Below, one piece after another: positions 22,711-62,542 of a DNA stretch of 64,000 nt. The stretch is from an uncultured bacterium. GTDB lineage: Bacteria; Zixibacteria; MSB-5A5; GN15; FEB-12. The stretch spans positions 1 through 64,000 of the forward strand of contig CBDVDR010000008.1 of assembly GCA_965372795.1 (NCBI GenBank), in the 5' to 3' direction. Below the pieces are notes generated by a model. That model ran no database searches. It worked only from the letters and a program-made list of their open reading frames with translations, and was not told where the DNA came from. Within the stretch, counting starts at the first letter, position 1, and each line of letters begins with the position of its first letter. Position numbers and translations under genes: made by a program.

Positions 22711-23048
22711 TAAGCATTTGGTTTCCATGCTGTACACAATAGTAGTTTGCGTAATTGGCTTCCGATTCATATGGTTCAATGTGCAGATTATTACAGACTT
22801 TGTCTGTCGCATTTACTACGAAAGTCTTGTCCCCAAATCATCTACAAAGCTGACCAACGTCGGGAATTCTGGCAGACCGATAAAGCAACTTTGTAAGGCT
22901 CTCGGGATAGCGGTGAGTTTTGGTTGAGGAACATTAGTTGTCGTATTTGGTGGTAGGGCGAAAACTATTGCTCGGGGTACTTCGCGTGGTGGCGCACTTC
23001 CTAAATTGCAAACACACATTGAGTTACAATAGTGTAGTTAGAATAAAA

Positions 23049-23402
23049 TGGAGGTGGGGGGAATCGAACCCCCGTCCGAATCTAGCGTCAAGTCATCATC
23101 TACATGCGTAGGCTATCTATAATTTCTCGCTATATCAGCTGCCGAAAGCCAGGCCACCAATACAGCCAGTCTATTAGTTTAAGTTTCTCTTATAGACATC
23201 GAAAAACCGAGCCTTCTTTAACGGCGCTATATCCCAATCTTGAAGGCAAAAGATCAGGTACAACGGGCTAAACCTATTACTAGGCAGCCATGGCGTAATT
23301 ATTTTCGCCAAATAGTGTTTTGTCCGGTTTGATAACGAGGTTCCAAACATCCCCGGCACGCAAACAACCCCCCACTAAACCCGTCGAAGCCATGTCACCC
23401 CC
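23049..23402 (-). ncRNA. ssrA: tmRNA; tag peptide (A)GENNYAMAA
   Basis: 5' GGGGGTGACATGGCTTCGAC, 3' GACGGGGGTTCGATTCCCCCCACCTCCA with a G3-U alanine acceptor pair. Internal ORF GGC GAA AAT AAT TAC GCC ATG GCT GCC TAG TAA. Length 354 nt; CCA tail not encoded. Confidence 0.97.
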
Positions 23403-52452: not shown

Positions 52453-52815
52453 ATACATTTTCCTATTCAACAGTGTTTTGGGTGTGAATTTGGAGGGATG
52501 CACGGGCACTTGATTAATTGATGAAATACATATATATTTATCCATGAATTATAGGCGTTCGGTTTTGGCAGGGAGATGACTTATGAAGATTATTACTAAC
52601 CCCACCGCAAGGGGTGGGGTGGCTGTGATAGAAGAAAAACATGAACGTCGAAACCGCAAGGGTTTCTACCTACTCTAACTATATAAAAACCAGAATAAGT
52701 CACAATCAAGTCACATCTGGTGTTCAATTTAGAACTTTTAACCGATATAATCGTTATAATATTATTGGTTGACTTAATGCAATAATTAGACATATTGAGT
52801 TTGAAAGGAATTTTT

Positions 52816-53382
52816 ATGGACTTTACAAGATATCATAGCTTCAAAGATGAACATAAAAAACTCAAAGAGTTGATTCTTTATGTTTCAGATAAATGCTTGC
52901 AGCACAATAAATTTGGTGCAACTAAGTTAAATAAAATACTCTTTTTCTCAGACTTTATCGCTTACCATCAGCGAGGCATATCAATTACAGGAGAAACATA
53001 TTTTAAGTTGGATAATGGTCCTGCACCCAAACATTTACTTCCAGTTAGGGAGGAGCTAAGGCAAGCGAAAGATTTAGAGATTTCCATCAGGAAAACATTT
53101 GCTGGTGATCAATTACGCCCTATTGCATTGAGGCCACCAAATTTGTCTGAGTTTGATGGCGAAGAAATCTCAATAGTTGATGAAGTAATTACTGCACTTA
53201 GAGATAAAAGCTCAGAAGAAGTTAGTGAAATGTCTCATTTATTCCCTGGGTGGATATTGGTAAATACGAAAGAAGACATACCTTATGAAACAGTATATAT
53301 AAATGACCCTTCAAAGATTTTAGTTACTGACCATAATAACAAAAAAGCGCAGGAATTAGCTGAAAAAAATGGTCTCATCTGA
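52816..53382 (+). CDS. Panacea (DUF4065/SocA-like) antitoxin
   Basis: TKLNKILFFSDF, SITGETY..L..GP, SEMSH..W; start ATG 52816 after AGGA. Confidence 0.85.
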   Translation: MDFTRYHSFKDEHKKLKELILYVSDKCLQHNKFGATKLNKILFFSDFIAYHQRGISITGETYFKLDNGPAPKHLLPVREELRQAKDLEISIRKTFAGDQLRPIALRPPNLSEFDGEEISIVDEVITALRDKSSEEVSEMSHLFPGWILVNTKEDIPYETVYINDPSKILVTDHNNKKAQELAEKNGLI

Positions 53383-53671
53383 ATTTGATCGTACCTCTCG
53401 TTTTGTAGACTTTAATTCTGATGCAAGAGAAGATATTCATGCTATAGAAAGTACTTATCCAGATATCAATAAAGTTCTTATTGGTATTCAAGTATTTTTA
53501 AAAGAAAGTGCTCATAACGGTATCCATTTAAAGCATAATATTTATTTATACACAACTGCAAAAGGTACAACAATCCCTCCTATTGATGTTTATTATACTT
53601 TTGATGAAATCAAAGTTTTTGTGAATTGTTTAGAAGTAAAAAAGGGCTTTACTTACAATAATAATTCTTAA
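53369..53671 (+). CDS. Putative toxin partner of the Panacea antitoxin (possibly RelE/ParE-like fold)
   Basis: 100 aa, overlaps the antitoxin stop by 14 bp; V.F...A.EDI start and C-terminal beta-strands VYYTFDEIKVFV. Confidence 0.5.
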   Translation: MVSSEFDRTSRFVDFNSDAREDIHAIESTYPDINKVLIGIQVFLKESAHNGIHLKHNIYLYTTAKGTTIPPIDVYYTFDEIKVFVNCLEVKKGFTYNNNS

Positions 53672-56518: not shown

Positions 56519-57526
56519 CTATTTCAAAAAACCTTTTTCGCGCATCCAGTCATCATTAAAAATCTTACTAATATATTTTGGTCCGCCATCCGGCAGAATA
56601 ACTACCATCGTTTTGTCAGCCTCAAGAGTTTTAGCGTGTTCCATCGCAACATGTACAGCCGCACCCGATGAACCGCCGACGAAGATACCTTCTTTGCGGG
56701 TAAGATCGCGAGCTGTTAGAAAACTCTGCTGGTCGGTAACCTGATAGACTTTGTCGATATACTGAAAATCAATTGAGGGACAAAGCATATCTTCACCAAT
56801 ACCTTCAACAAAATAGGTATGGGGTTCGATCATGGTTTTATCTTTATGGTAATTATAATAAACCGATCCGATGGGGTCGACCGCAACTATTTCAATCTGA
56901 GAATTTTGTTCTTTTAGATATTTAGCTGTTCCCGAAACTGTTCCGCCGGTACCGATACCGCCGACTAACACATCAAGCTGACCATTGGTTTGTTTCCAGA
57001 TTTCCGGTCCGGTCAAATTATAGTGGGCTTCAATATTGTTGAGATTAAAATATTGTCCCACAAAGTAGCTTCCCTGGTTTTCCCGCTGCAGTCTTTTTGC
57101 GGTTTCGTAATAACTTTCGGGAGATTCAGCCGGGACCGCGGTCGGGCAGATATGCACCTCGGCACCAAAAGCTTTTAAGGCGTCAACTTTTTCCTGCGAC
57201 ATTTTATCCGGAATGGTTAATATGACTTTATGTCCATTGACCGCCCCAAACATAGCCACCGCTGCTCCGGTGTTGCCGGAAGTTGCCTCGACAATAGTTC
57301 CGCCCGGTTTGAGATCGCCTTTATCAAGCGCCTGTTTTAAAATATAAATAGCCATGCGGTCTTTAATAGAGCCGGTCGGATTCATAAATTCCGGTTTTAC
57401 TAAAATAGTAGCTTTGATGCCCAGTTCGGCAGGCAATTTTTGAAGTTTAATCAGCGGAGTATTGCCGATTACTTCCGTTATGTCGTTTGAATACTTAAAC
57501 TTAGTTTTCAAAATTGTTTCGTTCAC
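56519..57526 (-). CDS. Cystathionine beta-synthase / cysteine synthase family
   Basis: NPTGSIKDR, EATSGNTG, DKMSQEK (CBS-like), GIGTGGT, EGIG, YISK. Confidence 0.93.
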   Translation of the reverse strand: MNETILKTKFKYSNDITEVIGNTPLIKLQKLPAELGIKATILVKPEFMNPTGSIKDRMAIYILKQALDKGDLKPGGTIVEATSGNTGAAVAMFGAVNGHKVILTIPDKMSQEKVDALKAFGAEVHICPTAVPAESPESYYETAKRLQRENQGSYFVGQYFNLNNIEAHYNLTGPEIWKQTNGQLDVLVGGIGTGGTVSGTAKYLKEQNSQIEIVAVDPIGSVYYNYHKDKTMIEPHTYFVEGIGEDMLCPSIDFQYIDKVYQVTDQQSFLTARDLTRKEGIFVGGSSGAAVHVAMEHAKTLEADKTMVVILPDGGPKYISKIFNDDWMREKGFLK

Positions 57527-57564
57527 TTATAACCTCTTAAAATTTTATATCCTTATAATAAAGC

Positions 57565-57594
57565 AAAAAAAAACCACCTTCAACTAAAAGGTGG
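57565..57594 (-). terminator. Attenuator terminator upstream of the CBS gene
   Basis: CCACCTTT-TAGTT-GAAGGTGG followed by T9, between the leader ORF and the CBS start. Confidence 0.8.
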
Positions 57595-57625
57595 ACCAAA
57601 ATATACAAAGTTGCTGTTATTCAGA

Positions 57626-57697
57626 CTAAGACATATTTCGATCCTTCTTATTACAACAACAACAGCAGCTAATATGTTTACGAAATAGTTTAATCAT
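57626..57697 (-). CDS. Poly-cysteine leader peptide MIKLFRKHISCCCCCNKKDRNMS
   Basis: 23 codons including TGC TGT TGT TGT TGT; AGGA upstream; directly 5' of the terminator and cysteine-metabolism genes. Confidence 0.8.
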   Translation of the reverse strand: MIKLFRKHISCCCCCNKKDRNMS

Positions 57698-57914
57698 CAC
57701 AAGTTTTCCTTTGTAGACAATTATAATCTATAAATAGAATTTGTCAAGATCATAATTTGAACAAAAAATTAATATATTTCAAAAAGTAAAATAATCATTG
57801 ACAACTTTCTTGTGGCTAATTAGAATTATTACAAGCAACCGCGCCCATCTATTTTGTAAGTAGTTGTACAAGTGGCGTTTCTATGACAGAATTCAAATGT
57901 CGGAGATCTTAGGG

Positions 57915-58085
57915 ATGATCTGCACAAATTGCAAAGATGAAATTAAAGGTAATCCAATTAGGCAAGGCGATGAAATCTATTGCTCGTTAGAATGCGCCAA
58001 TAAAACCAGTGGGATGAAGCCTGAGAGTGAAGACTATTTTGAGGAACATGAGCTTGAAGGGCTTTATAACGAGGACGAAGAATAA
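57915..58085 (+). CDS. Small Cys4 metal-binding protein with acidic tail
   Basis: MICTNCK...YCSLECA (CxxC...YCSxxC); GGAG upstream of ATG 57915. Confidence 0.65.
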   Translation: MICTNCKDEIKGNPIRQGDEIYCSLECANKTSGMKPESEDYFEEHELEGLYNEDEE

Positions 58086-58119
58086 CAACTAAGGGTATTA
58101 GTTATAATTCTTACTTAAA

Positions 58120-60009: not shown

Positions 60010-62463
60010 TTAAAATAACTCCATTTTAATCTGTCCAAAAATCGAACGTTCAGCCCCAACATAATATTCCGCCCAGCCACCTACAACAATATTAGTGCCG
60101 TCATCATAGGCATAATTTCCGCCATAACCGGAGGTTTCATATTTTTTATCAAACAGATTGTCAACCTTGCCGGTAACGATAAGGTTGCCAATATTTAAAA
60201 AGTGGTCCATGCGATATGAAATTGATAATGATGCCACAGAAAAAGCATCTATAGCCAGATCATCAATATTCCACAACTCAAGATACTGTTGGCCGATAAA
60301 TTTATGCTTATAAGTTATCCGCCATTTATCAATTGTATAATCAGCAATAATATTACCTAACAATTCAGGGAATCCAGCAGCCTTCTTATTGTTAAAGTCA
60401 ACTTCGTATCCATCGAGCAGGGGCAGATAGTTTTTAATCCGATTATAATTGTAAGAGAAATTTCCTGACAGGCTTAAGCCTGTTTGAATCAAGTATGAAA
60501 AATTGCTTTCTATGCCGGCATGAACTGAGCGATCAGCATTGACAGTAATCGCTATGCCATCATCATCAATACCGCCATAAGGAATGATTTCATCCTGAAA
60601 ATCCATCCAGAACAGGCTTACGCCTGCCTGATATTTTTCAGCTCTATAATCTAAACCAAGTTCATAGTCATAGACCCGTTCAGATTTTGCGGTTGGATCA
60701 CCAAATTTATAGATAGTATCACTTCCAACAGTAGTCATACTTTCAACTTCAAGCGACGGCAGAATAAATGGGTCGTTGGCGTCATAGATTGAAGCATCGG
60801 TCGGGGTTCGCGATGAAATCGCAAAGTTGCCATAAAAACTTAACTTGTCCGATATTTTATAGCTGGCACCAATCCTCGGAGAGAAAAATAACCAGTCGAT
60901 ATCATAATCATGTCCGGCAAAGGCGCCAATTTTTGTCTGATCAAATTTGTACCTTTGATAACGCAGTTGGGCGGTGACTTGAGTTGAAAGTTTTTCGGTA
61001 AACCGATATTCTTCCTGGGCAAAAAACGAGCCAACATATTTATCGCCAAAATATTCATAATAACGTGATGGATTTGAAAGAATTGAATTTAAGTATTCGG
61101 CTTGTTTAACCTGTCCCCAATGTTCCGATTCAAAGAAATAGAAAGAACCGCCAATTGTGTGAGTTCCCTTTTCATGTTCAATCACTAAACTGGGGTTCCA
61201 CCCTAATTGATTTTTGCGTACCCATTGCTGGCGGACAAGGTTACCACTTGAGCTGTCACTTGAATTGTTAAGATTATATTCAGAATAATCACGACCGGTT
61301 TTTAACTGTTCGTAGTAGCCTTTACCGCGAATATAGTATAGGGTATTAGACAGAGTTGTTTTATCGTTGATACGATAAATATTATGCAGATGGTAATGGG
61401 GCTGGTTAAAGTTGTCCGTTTCATTTTCATATTCCAAAGGATTTGCCCGGCGATTAAGTTCTATCGCTTCGCGTGAGGAGCCCCAGTAGGAGAGGTGCAT
61501 CCTTATCGGACCGCCGTAGATATACAGTTCGGTGGTCATGTTTGGATCAAGCCGTCCCAGCCCAAAGAAATATGCCCAGCCTTCATACCAGCTGTTTTCA
61601 CGATAGCCACCGGTTTTCTGTTTTGAGAATCGTCCGGTAAACTGCCATTGCCCATCAATCAACCCCGAGGAATATTCAAGGGTATGCTTATAAATATCAC
61701 TGATGACTTTCCCGTCTGATGTATAAACACCAAATCCGGATGATAAGGAAGTAATTTGAGGCTGTGCAAAGATACTGGTGACAACATTTATAGAGCCCCC
61801 AAACGAGGCATCGCCGTAAAGTGAATTGCCTACTCCACGCTGAATTTGAATATCAGTTATATTTGAGGCAAAATCGGGTAGATCGACAAAATAGGTTGCC
61901 TGATCTTCGGGATCATTTAACGGTACTCCATTAATATAAGTTGAGATACGTTTGTCATCAAACCCTCTGATTTTCATATAGCTGTATCCAAGCGGTGAAC
62001 CGGCATCGGAAAAAGCATGAAGATTTGGAGTTGATTCAAGCAGTAATGGAAATTCGCCCACAGTATAATCGCGTTTGATTTCTTCTTTTGAAAAATTGTC
62101 AAAAGCAATTGGTGAAACACCAAGTTTGGCTCGGTTAGCAGTAACGATTATATCATCACTTCGTAAAAACATTTTTTTCAAAGTAATTTCAGGGGTTAAG
62201 TCCGATGCCTTAAATTTAATCGGGTAATATCCTACCGACGAAAAAGTCACATGGGTTATTCCTTTCATATCCGGCAGTTTAAAAACACCCATATCATTTG
62301 TTATTGTTCCAACCGCTTTCAAGTTGGTGATAACAGAAACCCCCAATAAGGGTTCTTTGTCAGAATTTGTTACTTTGCCGTTGATTTCATCGGCATTGAC
62401 CGAAGAAATCGTGAGCAAAAGGAATAGTAGTAACCCTGAAAAGTTTTTTGTGATTGTTCTCAT
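60010..62463 (-). CDS. TonB-dependent receptor, probably for thiamine
   Basis: Plug IRGFD...INGVPLND, IQIQRGVG..GGSIN; C-terminal F; TPP riboswitch upstream; start MRTITK at 62463. Confidence 0.9.
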   Translation of the reverse strand: MRTITKNFSGLLLFLLLTISSVNADEINGKVTNSDKEPLLGVSVITNLKAVGTITNDMGVFKLPDMKGITHVTFSSVGYYPIKFKASDLTPEITLKKMFLRSDDIIVTANRAKLGVSPIAFDNFSKEEIKRDYTVGEFPLLLESTPNLHAFSDAGSPLGYSYMKIRGFDDKRISTYINGVPLNDPEDQATYFVDLPDFASNITDIQIQRGVGNSLYGDASFGGSINVVTSIFAQPQITSLSSGFGVYTSDGKVISDIYKHTLEYSSGLIDGQWQFTGRFSKQKTGGYRENSWYEGWAYFFGLGRLDPNMTTELYIYGGPIRMHLSYWGSSREAIELNRRANPLEYENETDNFNQPHYHLHNIYRINDKTTLSNTLYYIRGKGYYEQLKTGRDYSEYNLNNSSDSSSGNLVRQQWVRKNQLGWNPSLVIEHEKGTHTIGGSFYFFESEHWGQVKQAEYLNSILSNPSRYYEYFGDKYVGSFFAQEEYRFTEKLSTQVTAQLRYQRYKFDQTKIGAFAGHDYDIDWLFFSPRIGASYKISDKLSFYGNFAISSRTPTDASIYDANDPFILPSLEVESMTTVGSDTIYKFGDPTAKSERVYDYELGLDYRAEKYQAGVSLFWMDFQDEIIPYGGIDDDGIAITVNADRSVHAGIESNFSYLIQTGLSLSGNFSYNYNRIKNYLPLLDGYEVDFNNKKAAGFPELLGNIIADYTIDKWRITYKHKFIGQQYLELWNIDDLAIDAFSVASLSISYRMDHFLNIGNLIVTGKVDNLFDKKYETSGYGGNYAYDDGTNIVVGGWAEYYVGAERSIFGQIKMELF

Positions 62464-62542
62464 GACAGAAACCTCATTAAAAAAATTGTGAGATTCCGTC
62501 CTGTTCGAAAGGAAGCCAAAAGGCTGGGGATGTAAATACATC

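Follow-up and report, generated by a model that had tools for sequence, protein, structure and literature searches.

A putative ribosome-mediated cysteine attenuator with an intrinsic terminator upstream of cystathionine beta-synthase and gamma-lyase genes in an uncultured Zixibacteria bacterium

Results

The cysteine leader and the genes that it precedes

The 64,000-nucleotide stretch of DNA analysed here (positions 1 to 64,000 of contig CBDVDR010000008.1, called the window below) comes from an uncultured bacterium of the Zixibacteria and carries consecutive genes for a cystathionine beta-synthase (CBS)-like enzyme, a cystathionine gamma-lyase (CGL)-like enzyme and an S-adenosylmethionine (SAM)-dependent methyltransferase, preceded by a short leader open reading frame (ORF) with five consecutive cysteine codons and by an intrinsic terminator (Table 1). 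Coordinates are those of the 64-kb window; leader, terminator and operon all lie on the minus strand. An initial annotation of this DNA had named the five-Cys leader peptide, a pairing between the Cys codons and a downstream segment, a CCACCTT/AAGGTGG-U9 terminator and the CBS, CGL and methyltransferase genes, and had read them as classical terminator-type cysteine attenuation. These elements were all recovered (the peptide at 57700/57697-57626, minus strand; the genes, as stated, by family-level matches), and the interpretation was supported on a computational basis, with an overlap between antiterminator and terminator of 2 nt in two of five leaders. The element is probably a ribosome-mediated, intrinsic-terminator transcription attenuator that senses charged tRNA-Cys and controls the module of CBS/MccA-like, CGL/MccB-like and SAM methyltransferase genes; all the support is computational.

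Table 1 Features of the cysteine leader and of the downstream operon (window coordinates).
Feature	Coordinates	Strand	Details
Promoter	57747-57720	-	TTGACA 57747-57742, 16-nt spacer, TATAAT 57725-57720; perfect sigma-70-type, 12/12 consensus matches
Shine-Dalgarno (SD) sequence AGGA	57710-57707	-	6 nt before GTG 57700, 9 nt before ATG 57697; predicted from sequence
Leader ORF	57700 (GTG)/57697 (ATG) to 57626	-	(V)MIKLFRKHISCCCCCNKKDRNMS; 23/24 codons; stop TAG 57628-57626
Five consecutive Cys codons	57667-57653	-	TGC TGT TGT TGT TGT; proposed sensor of charged tRNA-Cys
Hairpin A, candidate antiterminator	57644-57593	-	52 nt, 13 bp
Segment 2, candidate anti-antiterminator	57621-57612	-	AAUAACAGCA; located in the hairpin A loop; partner of the Cys codons when the leader is untranslated
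Intrinsic terminator	57594-57565	-	8-bp stem CCACCUUU/GAAGGUGG 57594-57574, loop UAGUU, U9 tract 57573-57565
Promoter-like sequence	57583-57555	-	TTGAAG-17-TATTAT; 9/12 matches; overlaps the 3' arm of the terminator
Gene 1, CBS-like (MccA-like) pyridoxal phosphate (PLP) enzyme	57526-56519	-	PALP fold, 335 aa; GTG start; SD AAGAGG at about 57536-57531
Gene 2, CGL-like (MccB-like) PLP enzyme	56509-55334	-	Cys_Met_Meta_PP, 391 aa
Gene 3, class I SAM-dependent methyltransferase	55208-54408	-	266 aa

The order of the elements (promoter, SD, Cys5 ORF, hairpin, terminator, biosynthetic genes) is that of classical attenuators and supports reading the leader as one of them; so does the regulatory logic, the product of the pathway being the amino acid that would be sensed. 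The perfect promoter and the AGGA SD were found here and had not been part of the initial annotation. From promoter spacing alone, transcription is predicted to start at about 57713, which gives a predicted 5' untranslated region (UTR) of about 13-16 nt containing the SD; a short ORF with an SD is thus present between the promoter and the first structural gene, and its translation is predicted. Runs of at least five TGY codons occur once in the whole window (both strands, all frames), and in dinucleotide-shuffled controls (n = 100) the mean was 0.0 for such runs and 0.08 for runs of at least four. The leader (57715-57555) folds more stably than its shuffles (z = -2.69).

Conservation of the leader among relatives

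The CBS-like protein was searched against genome contigs and matched at least 600 stretches; 587 relatives were among the matches listed, and the best 80 were kept as loci (L-numbered). Nine of these are close relatives (L001-L006, L008, L009 and L077; CBS identity 68-79%), from metagenome-assembled genomes labelled Ignavibacteriales (a member of the Fibrobacteres-Chlorobi-Bacteroidetes (FCB) group), Zixiibacteriota or just "bacterium"; identity does not exceed 57% in the remaining loci of the best 80, most of which are Flavobacteriia (about 47%). Four loci, L004, L005, L006 and L077 (4/80 loci, 4/9 close relatives), have four or five Cys codons in an in-frame run that lies about 140-170 nt ahead of the CBS start. 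In-frame conservation of the run was a test that the initial annotation had set for its own reading, to be refuted if relatives lacked it: these four relatives keep the run, and the rest of the peptide diverges. Read from the nearest start codons, their leader peptides are MNQTSKILNPTCTCCCCNSEGRTMP, MNLSRCNCCCCCRKEGRITP, MRKNQTYFVVEHCICCCCCTYQRRGLA and MINSLEHTGCCCCRGMDRAGP, respectively; with the peptide of the window they make five sequences of 20-27 aa that share little beyond the Cys run, and the variation inside the run is synonymous (TGT vs TGC).

The spacing of the elements is conserved as well. In 5/5 leaders (the window and the four relatives) exactly 24 nt separate the end of the run from the stop codon, and in 5/5 the terminator stem ends 55-58 nt past that stop codon; each leader is preceded by a TTGACA-16 nt-TAnnnT promoter, read by eye in the four relatives. 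A CCACC...GGUGG hairpin followed by U6-U9 was found in 4/4 relatives with the Cys leader, and no hairpin with a U-run was found in the 266-350 nt upstream of CBS in the five close relatives that have no Cys leader (0/5; leader-free loci). The methyltransferase gene follows the CGL gene in 4/4 leader-bearing loci and in 0/5 leader-free close loci. Leader, terminator and methyltransferase therefore travel together (5/5 vs 0/5, counting the window).

In a CBS tree of 16 rows (the window, the nine close loci and six outgroups, that is 15 of the best 80), the ten close sequences form a single clade (100/100). Inside it, the leader-free L008 groups with the leader-bearing L005 (96/97); L008 also shares the symporter-GreA-orf73-CBS-CGL synteny with the window and L004. 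L008 (positions 2400-2950) lacks the Cys run, the terminator and the methyltransferase and has just a possible ORF of 12 codons, with CGIICCG at its end. The position of L008 beside L005 suggests that the attenuator was lost or replaced. Two other leader-free loci, L001 (2800-2931) and L002 (2800-2925), have in common a GC-rich, hairpin-prone 5' region before CBS (..CACGGG..CCGG..GGC..) without an Rfam match, which may be a different regulatory element.

The start of the transcript appears to differ among the leaders. In L004 (2761-2798) and L006 (2748-2785) only 7 nt separate the end of the -10 box from the ATG of the leader, and from this spacing the Cys leader ORFs of these two loci are predicted to stand on leaderless mRNAs.

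Terminator, antiterminator and the pairing of the Cys codons

The terminator of the window has a fold of -10.4 kcal/mol (z = -3.85), and 0/200 shuffles were as stable. Upstream of it, hairpin A has a fold of -16.6 kcal/mol (z = -4.47; 0/200 shuffles equal in stability). Its 5' arm, GGAUCGAAAUAUG (57644-57632), is made of the last codons of the leader ORF, its 3' arm spans 57605-57593, and its final residues, C57594 and C57593, double as the basal residues of the stem of the terminator; the hairpin can optionally be extended by pairing of AAG 57649-57647 with CUU 57590-57588. The initial annotation had left the antiterminator undefined. Hairpin 57644-57593, extendable to 57649-57588, is the most likely antiterminator, with the reservation that its overlap with the terminator is short. 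The RNAalifold consensus structure of the five leaders consists of hairpin A and the terminator, and an equivalent of the hairpin A helix (GGNYCG...CGRUCC) starts 8 nt past the last Cys codon in L004 (GGGUCGGA/UUCGAUCC), L005 (GGGCCGGA/UUCGGUCC) and L077 (GGACCG/CGGUCC). The pairing noticed at the outset is that between segment 1, UGCUGUUGUU (57667-57658), in the Cys codons and segment 2 (10 pairs, one of them G-U), and it belongs to the minimum-energy fold of the untranslated leader. This ribosome-free fold contains the terminator and the pairing of the Cys codons with 57621-57612 but not hairpin A.

Leaders were folded with a ribosome mask (A site on a Cys codon, 13 nt masked), and the probability of the two basal pairs of the terminator was read out. 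With the ribosome stalled at the first Cys codon these two probabilities were 0.04/0.32 in the window, 0.14/0.39 in L004, 0.11/0.30 in L005, 0.01/0.11 in L077 and 0.74/0.77 in L006; with the ribosome at the stop codon they were at least 0.93/1.0 in every one of the five leaders. In 4/5 leaders the basal pairs thus switch from 0.39 or less to 0.93 or more with the position of the ribosome, yet just two residues are shared between the hairpins in L004 and L005. When only the sequence upstream was shuffled and the terminator left unchanged (n = 300), a basal-pair probability as low was reached in 4/300 shuffles of the window, 8/300 of L004, 29/300 of L005, 4/300 of L077 and 106/300 of L006, and the switching is accordingly unusual in three to four of the five leaders. 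Folding with and without masking, the check proposed in the initial annotation, is in keeping with the classical three-state logic.

Folds computed before the 3' arm of the terminator has been transcribed place residues of its 5' arm in upstream pairs: 5/8 in the window, 6/6 in L006 (GAGGU:ACCUC) and 7/10 in L077; in L004 and L005 just the two C residues are paired. In alignment A2, 85% of the cells are paired, vs 81.3% in shuffles (13/500 as high) and 33-62% in slid controls, and two pairs show a double-sided change (119/500 shuffles); the structure tested for covariation was derived from these same five sequences. Two other antiterminator candidates were rejected: a longer conserved one, in which a purine-rich stretch 5' of hairpin A pairs with the CCUU of the terminator, is present in the window, L006 and L077 and absent from L004 and L005, and an upstream CCACC-like copy able to pair with the 3' arm of the terminator was seen in L004 only.

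Specificity of the searches

A covariance model (R1) built from the five leaders was searched against the window and the 80 loci (580,330 bases) and retrieved only the five training sequences, at 70-99 bits, with no credible sixth copy. Next came matches of 22.9-16.5 bits (E 0.01-0.3) that recur at a single syntenic position of seven Flavobacterium loci; they were discarded, having no Cys run and being antisense to apparent coding sequence. Looser Cys patterns (CCC, CC.C, C.CC) upstream of CBS flagged 11 further loci. The pattern of L002 is the C-terminus of an 851-aa ORF; those of L014, L047, L050 and L074 lie off-frame within long upstream ORFs; those of L025, L052, L072 and L076, at -437 to -450, resemble those of L014 and L047; and those of L007 and L079 are artefacts, the CBS start lying off the locus. 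The other TGY runs of at least four codons in the loci (n = 5: L025, two in L051, L059 and L069) were also set aside, being on the strand opposite to CBS and, by eye, without a terminator in 150 nt.

No T-box or riboswitch was found by an Rfam scan of 57300-58100 with E-values up to 10 (four matches, the best with E 1.3, all far below gathering), and Rfam scans at gathering thresholds gave 0 matches in the nine close loci. Over the whole window, Rfam recognised a transfer-messenger RNA (tmRNA) and a thiamine pyrophosphate (TPP) riboswitch only, both outside the leader, and no SAM riboswitch. The five leader peptides had no NCBIfam match, and their Pfam search gave just a sub-threshold match of the L006 peptide to DUF6590 (E 0.25, 11.8 bits vs 27).

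Downstream and neighbouring genes

The best NCBIfam model for gene 1 is TIGR01137 (cystathionine beta-synthase; 393 bits, below the full-length cutoff of 510), the protein having the catalytic domain only; against solved structures it scores 270-300 bits with CBS and about 215 bits with cysteine synthases. Gene 2 is best matched by PRK07671 (bifunctional cystathionine gamma-lyase/homocysteine desulfhydrase; 471 bits, below the cutoff of 594). The activities assigned to genes 1-3 are those that family and context suggest. The methyltransferase belongs to the conserved module and may be co-transcribed with CBS and CGL. The 125-nt gap between the CGL and methyltransferase genes contains a 9-bp GC-rich hairpin (CAGCGGGAC/GUCCCGCUG, 55284-55262, minus strand) followed by a poor U tract; the corresponding gaps of related loci each have a stable but unrelated hairpin, and no conserved element was seen among them.

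Divergent from the leader promoter, a 73-aa ORF (57864-58085, plus strand) has a CxxC...CxxxC spacing, an acidic tail and a TTGACA-17-TAGAAT promoter of its own (57798-57826), with no Pfam or NCBIfam match. It is kept at the same position in L004 and L008; as it is present in the leader-free L008 too, it does not co-vary with the Cys leader. Elsewhere in the window, the TPP riboswitch (RF00059; 62532-62627, minus strand; 72.7 bits, gathering 54.3) lies directly upstream of an 843-aa ORF (60010-62541, minus strand) whose sequence reads like that of a TonB-dependent outer-membrane receptor, and the tmRNA gene (RF00023; 184.9 bits) is at 23046-23402 on the minus strand. A 195-aa ORF with a SocA/Panacea antitoxin domain (PF13274, E 9.6e-15) overlaps a 100-aa ORF without a Pfam match (52795-53671, plus strand), and the two are possibly a toxin-antitoxin pair.

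Discussion

Proposed mechanism

Leader-peptide attenuation is a textbook mechanism, and its logic can be laid over the elements of the window. A strong constitutive promoter would give a leader transcript with the 23/24-codon Cys5 ORF. When cysteine is plentiful, the ribosome would reach the stop codon (57628-57626) with its footprint over the 5' arm of hairpin A (57644-57632); with this arm covered, the terminator (57594-57574) and its U9 tract would form fully, and transcription would end before the CBS gene. When cysteine is scarce, the ribosome would stall on Cys codons 1-4 (57667-57656) and leave the 5' arm free. Hairpin A would then form before the 3' arm of the terminator exists and would capture both C residues at the base of the terminator and, in some leaders, 5-7 nt of its 5' arm; the base of the terminator beside the U tract could not close, and RNA polymerase would read through into the operon. 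If the leader is not translated, the Cys codons would pair with 57621-57612, hairpin A would be disfavoured and the terminator would form. The sequence elements, the in-frame conservation, the geometry and the mask-dependent folds are observed computationally; from them we infer translation of the ORF, stalling of the ribosome and a real effect on termination.

Several observations weigh against this mechanism. The element was found in just 4/9 close relatives, and the leader-bearing CBS genes are not monophyletic, requiring at least two gains or losses; there is also no obvious SD before the leader ORF of L005. Hairpin A and the terminator share just 2 nt in L004 and L005, with 2-7 nt across the five leaders, and in the window the upper 6-bp hairpin of the terminator persists at equilibrium (probability 1.0 for pair 4). 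A short overlap is reported to leave formation of a terminator incompletely blocked (PMC3064811). A stall that places the last Cys codon in the A site, with a 13-nt mask, yields the full terminator in 4/5 leaders, so the model requires stalling at Cys codons 1-4. L006 departs from the others: its shuffle control is unremarkable (106/300), and its antiterminator, GAGGU:ACCUC, prevails in the equilibrium folds only when the ribosome is stalled at the last Cys codon (0.02, vs 0.74 at the first). The pairing of the Cys codons with segment 2 is in the minimum-energy fold of just 3/5 leaders (the window, L005 and L006), and covariation is not significant with five sequences. Lastly, the promoter-like sequence at 57583-57555 might give basal, leader-independent expression of the operon.

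If termination is triggered when the base of the stem closes beside the U tract, sequestering two G-C pairs there, with a bulky hairpin placed right against the stem, could be all that is needed.

Alternative explanations

The hairpin and U9 tract might be just a leaky or constitutive stop, the operon being controlled at translation as in the poly-Cys leaders studied so far. These leaders, the only ones examined experimentally, act by sequestration of the SD (bioRxiv 10.1101/834739); actinobacterial Cys leaders, including one before Bifidobacterium longum cbs, are without terminators (PMC1262725); the L004 and L006 leaders are apparently leaderless, as the mycobacterial ones are; and the short antiterminator overlap leaves room for another layer of control. 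Such control is nevertheless quite unlikely here, as a canonical terminator accompanies the Cys leader in 5/5 instances vs 0/5 leader-free relatives, the distance from stop codon to terminator is fixed at 55-58 nt, and no stable helix covers the SD of CBS (z = -0.11 for the local fold; in the full-length fold, diffuse pairs only, with a frequency of 0.0013 for the minimum-free-energy structure).

Promoter, ORF and terminator together form a complete transcription unit, and the leader might therefore be an independent small gene, for a Cys-rich peptide (metal- or redox-binding, for example) or a small RNA, with the CBS operon transcribed from a separate promoter. The promoter-like sequence at 57583-57555 sits between the leader ORF and the CBS gene, as this explanation would have it, and functions in trans are possible for attenuator RNAs and leader peptides (PMC7298713; 10.1101/606483). 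Against it, conservation is limited to the Cys run and to features of the RNA and does not extend to the remainder of the peptide (lengths 20-27 aa), the peptides have no family match at threshold, and the element is invariably directly upstream of CBS-CGL-methyltransferase. The internal promoter-like sequence matches 9/12 positions in AT-rich DNA, where 18 such sites were found vs 11.1 expected; a similar site is visible only in L004 and is unrecognisable in L005, L006 and L077. We regard an independent small gene as very unlikely. An untranslated structured RNA (riboswitch-like or protein-bound), with structural UGU repeats and a fortuitous ORF, would account for the stability of the leader above shuffles and for the pairing of the Cys codons with a downstream segment in 3/5 minimum-energy folds; it is nonetheless the hardest of these explanations to credit and highly improbable, since the start codon, the frame and a stop exactly 8 codons past the run are kept in 5/5 leaders despite differing surroundings, variation inside the run is synonymous, the segment that pairs with the Cys codons is not conserved and there is no match to an Rfam family.

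Implications of a terminator-type cysteine attenuator

If Ignavibacteria/Zixibacteria-like bacteria do have a Cys attenuator of the terminator type, recruitment of the classical mechanism would include cysteine as well, leader-peptide control would reach into a little-studied part of the FCB group, and one conserved gene module would become a clear case of sensor exchange (T-box, repressor, leader peptide). In uncultured organisms, the regulatory signature is also a reason to annotate the CBS-CGL-methyltransferase cluster as a pathway that produces cysteine, and the leader is a candidate for a compact, portable cysteine-responsive expression element. The short overlap, if functional, bears on how much of a terminator stem needs to be blocked to prevent termination.

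A broader proposition, which we hold only tentatively and consider doubtful as a whole, is that uncultured FCB-group bacteria have a family of ribosome-based sensors of tRNA-Cys charging, the first Cys attenuator with an intrinsic terminator, which replaces the Cys T-box or CymR of the Firmicutes on the same methyltransferase-MccB-MccA module and for which a geometry of minimal overlap is enough. If this were true, a stable hairpin that abuts the terminator and holds just two basal residues would suffice to keep a strong terminator open beside its U tract, and such leaders (two apparently on leaderless mRNAs) could be the sign of a broader cysteine "ribulon" in the genomes concerned.

Comparison with known systems

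Classical attenuators resemble the window leader in most respects. In the trpL, hisL, thrL, leuL, pheL and ilvL types of Proteobacteria, and in the His leaders of Bacilli (PMC2965389), a constitutive promoter precedes a short ORF with a run of codons for the amino acid that is the product of the pathway. They also have in common with it a stop codon upstream of alternative hairpins, a terminator before the first gene and, as far as the folds of the window leader predict, a choice made by ribosome position and a 1:2 pairing for the untranslated state. The distance from stop codon to terminator, 55-58 nt, is on the scale of that in Escherichia coli trpL. The differences are that the amino acid here is cysteine and that there is no sequence relation between the window leader and classical attenuators, nor an Rfam family. 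The overlap differs as well. In the comparison of PMC3064811, antiterminator and terminator overlap by 6-11 nt in the leader-peptide attenuators of enteric bacteria, T-boxes have about 7 nt, and Bacillus subtilis trp has 3, the CCC at the base of its stem; unlike the enteric arrangement, a separate hairpin here abuts the terminator and shares 2 nt (L004, L005) up to 7 nt with it. In having few residues shared at the base of the terminator, the leader is like the TRAP-controlled B. subtilis trp operon (CCC there, CC here), in which, by contrast, a protein is the sensor and the terminator is weak; here the sensor would be the ribosome and the terminator looks strong (8 bp, U9, -10.4 kcal/mol).

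Poly-Cys leaders themselves are known from Actinobacteria. Polycysteine small ORFs (sORFs) precede cys loci of Mycobacterium and occur in Propionibacterium acnes and before Bifidobacterium longum cbs (PMC1262725); in that study terminators were not found, and Rho was suggested. In the polycysteine leaderless sORFs of Mycobacterium smegmatis (Ms5788A), a stalled ribosome opens a duplex that hides the SD, a mechanism that the authors explicitly contrast with terminator-type attenuation (bioRxiv 10.1101/834739, Mol Microbiol 2020) and that PMC13236596 cites as translational attenuation. The window leader is like these sORFs in its consecutive Cys codons near the end of a short ORF, its downstream genes of cysteine metabolism (cbs included), its constitutive promoter and the proposed de-repression by stalling on Cys codons. 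Unlike the actinobacterial leaders, which have no conserved terminator (PMC1262725), the leaders described here have a U6-U9 terminator in 5/5 instances and no evident helix sequestering the SD. The window leader also has a short 5' UTR with an SD, whereas the mycobacterial sORFs are leaderless; L004 and L006 look leaderless by promoter spacing only. The Cys leaders described in the open-access literature and bioRxiv are all actinobacterial, lack terminators and act on translation, and no Cys leader with a terminator and no leader peptide in Ignavibacteria or Bacteroidetes was found there beyond the papers cited; the remark of the initial annotation that cysteine attenuation is not known to be described in this lineage held up within that literature. 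Leader-peptide systems had, to the knowledge of Naville and Gautheret in 2010, not been shown outside Proteobacteria and Actinobacteria, to which the His leaders of Firmicutes were then added (PMC2965389).

A parallel in gene content is found in the Firmicutes. In Clostridium acetobutylicum the ubiG-mccB-mccA operon (a methyltransferase, a cystathionine gamma-lyase plus a cystathionine beta-synthase) converts methionine to cysteine under a Cys-specific T-box, and in B. subtilis yrrT-mtnN-mccA-mccB is repressed by CymR (PMC2566862). The window holds the same module, a SAM methyltransferase, a CGL and a CBS for the conversion of methionine to cysteine. Unlike in C. acetobutylicum, there is no T-box match here, the proposed sensor is the translating ribosome and the methyltransferase gene is last, not first; no convergent S-box or antisense system was detected in the window (no SAM riboswitch by Rfam). 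The exchange of T-box and leader peptide on the same genes is described as recurrent in PMC2965389, and the T-box of C. acetobutylicum, like the proposed leader, reads the charging of tRNA-Cys through a choice between terminator and antiterminator.

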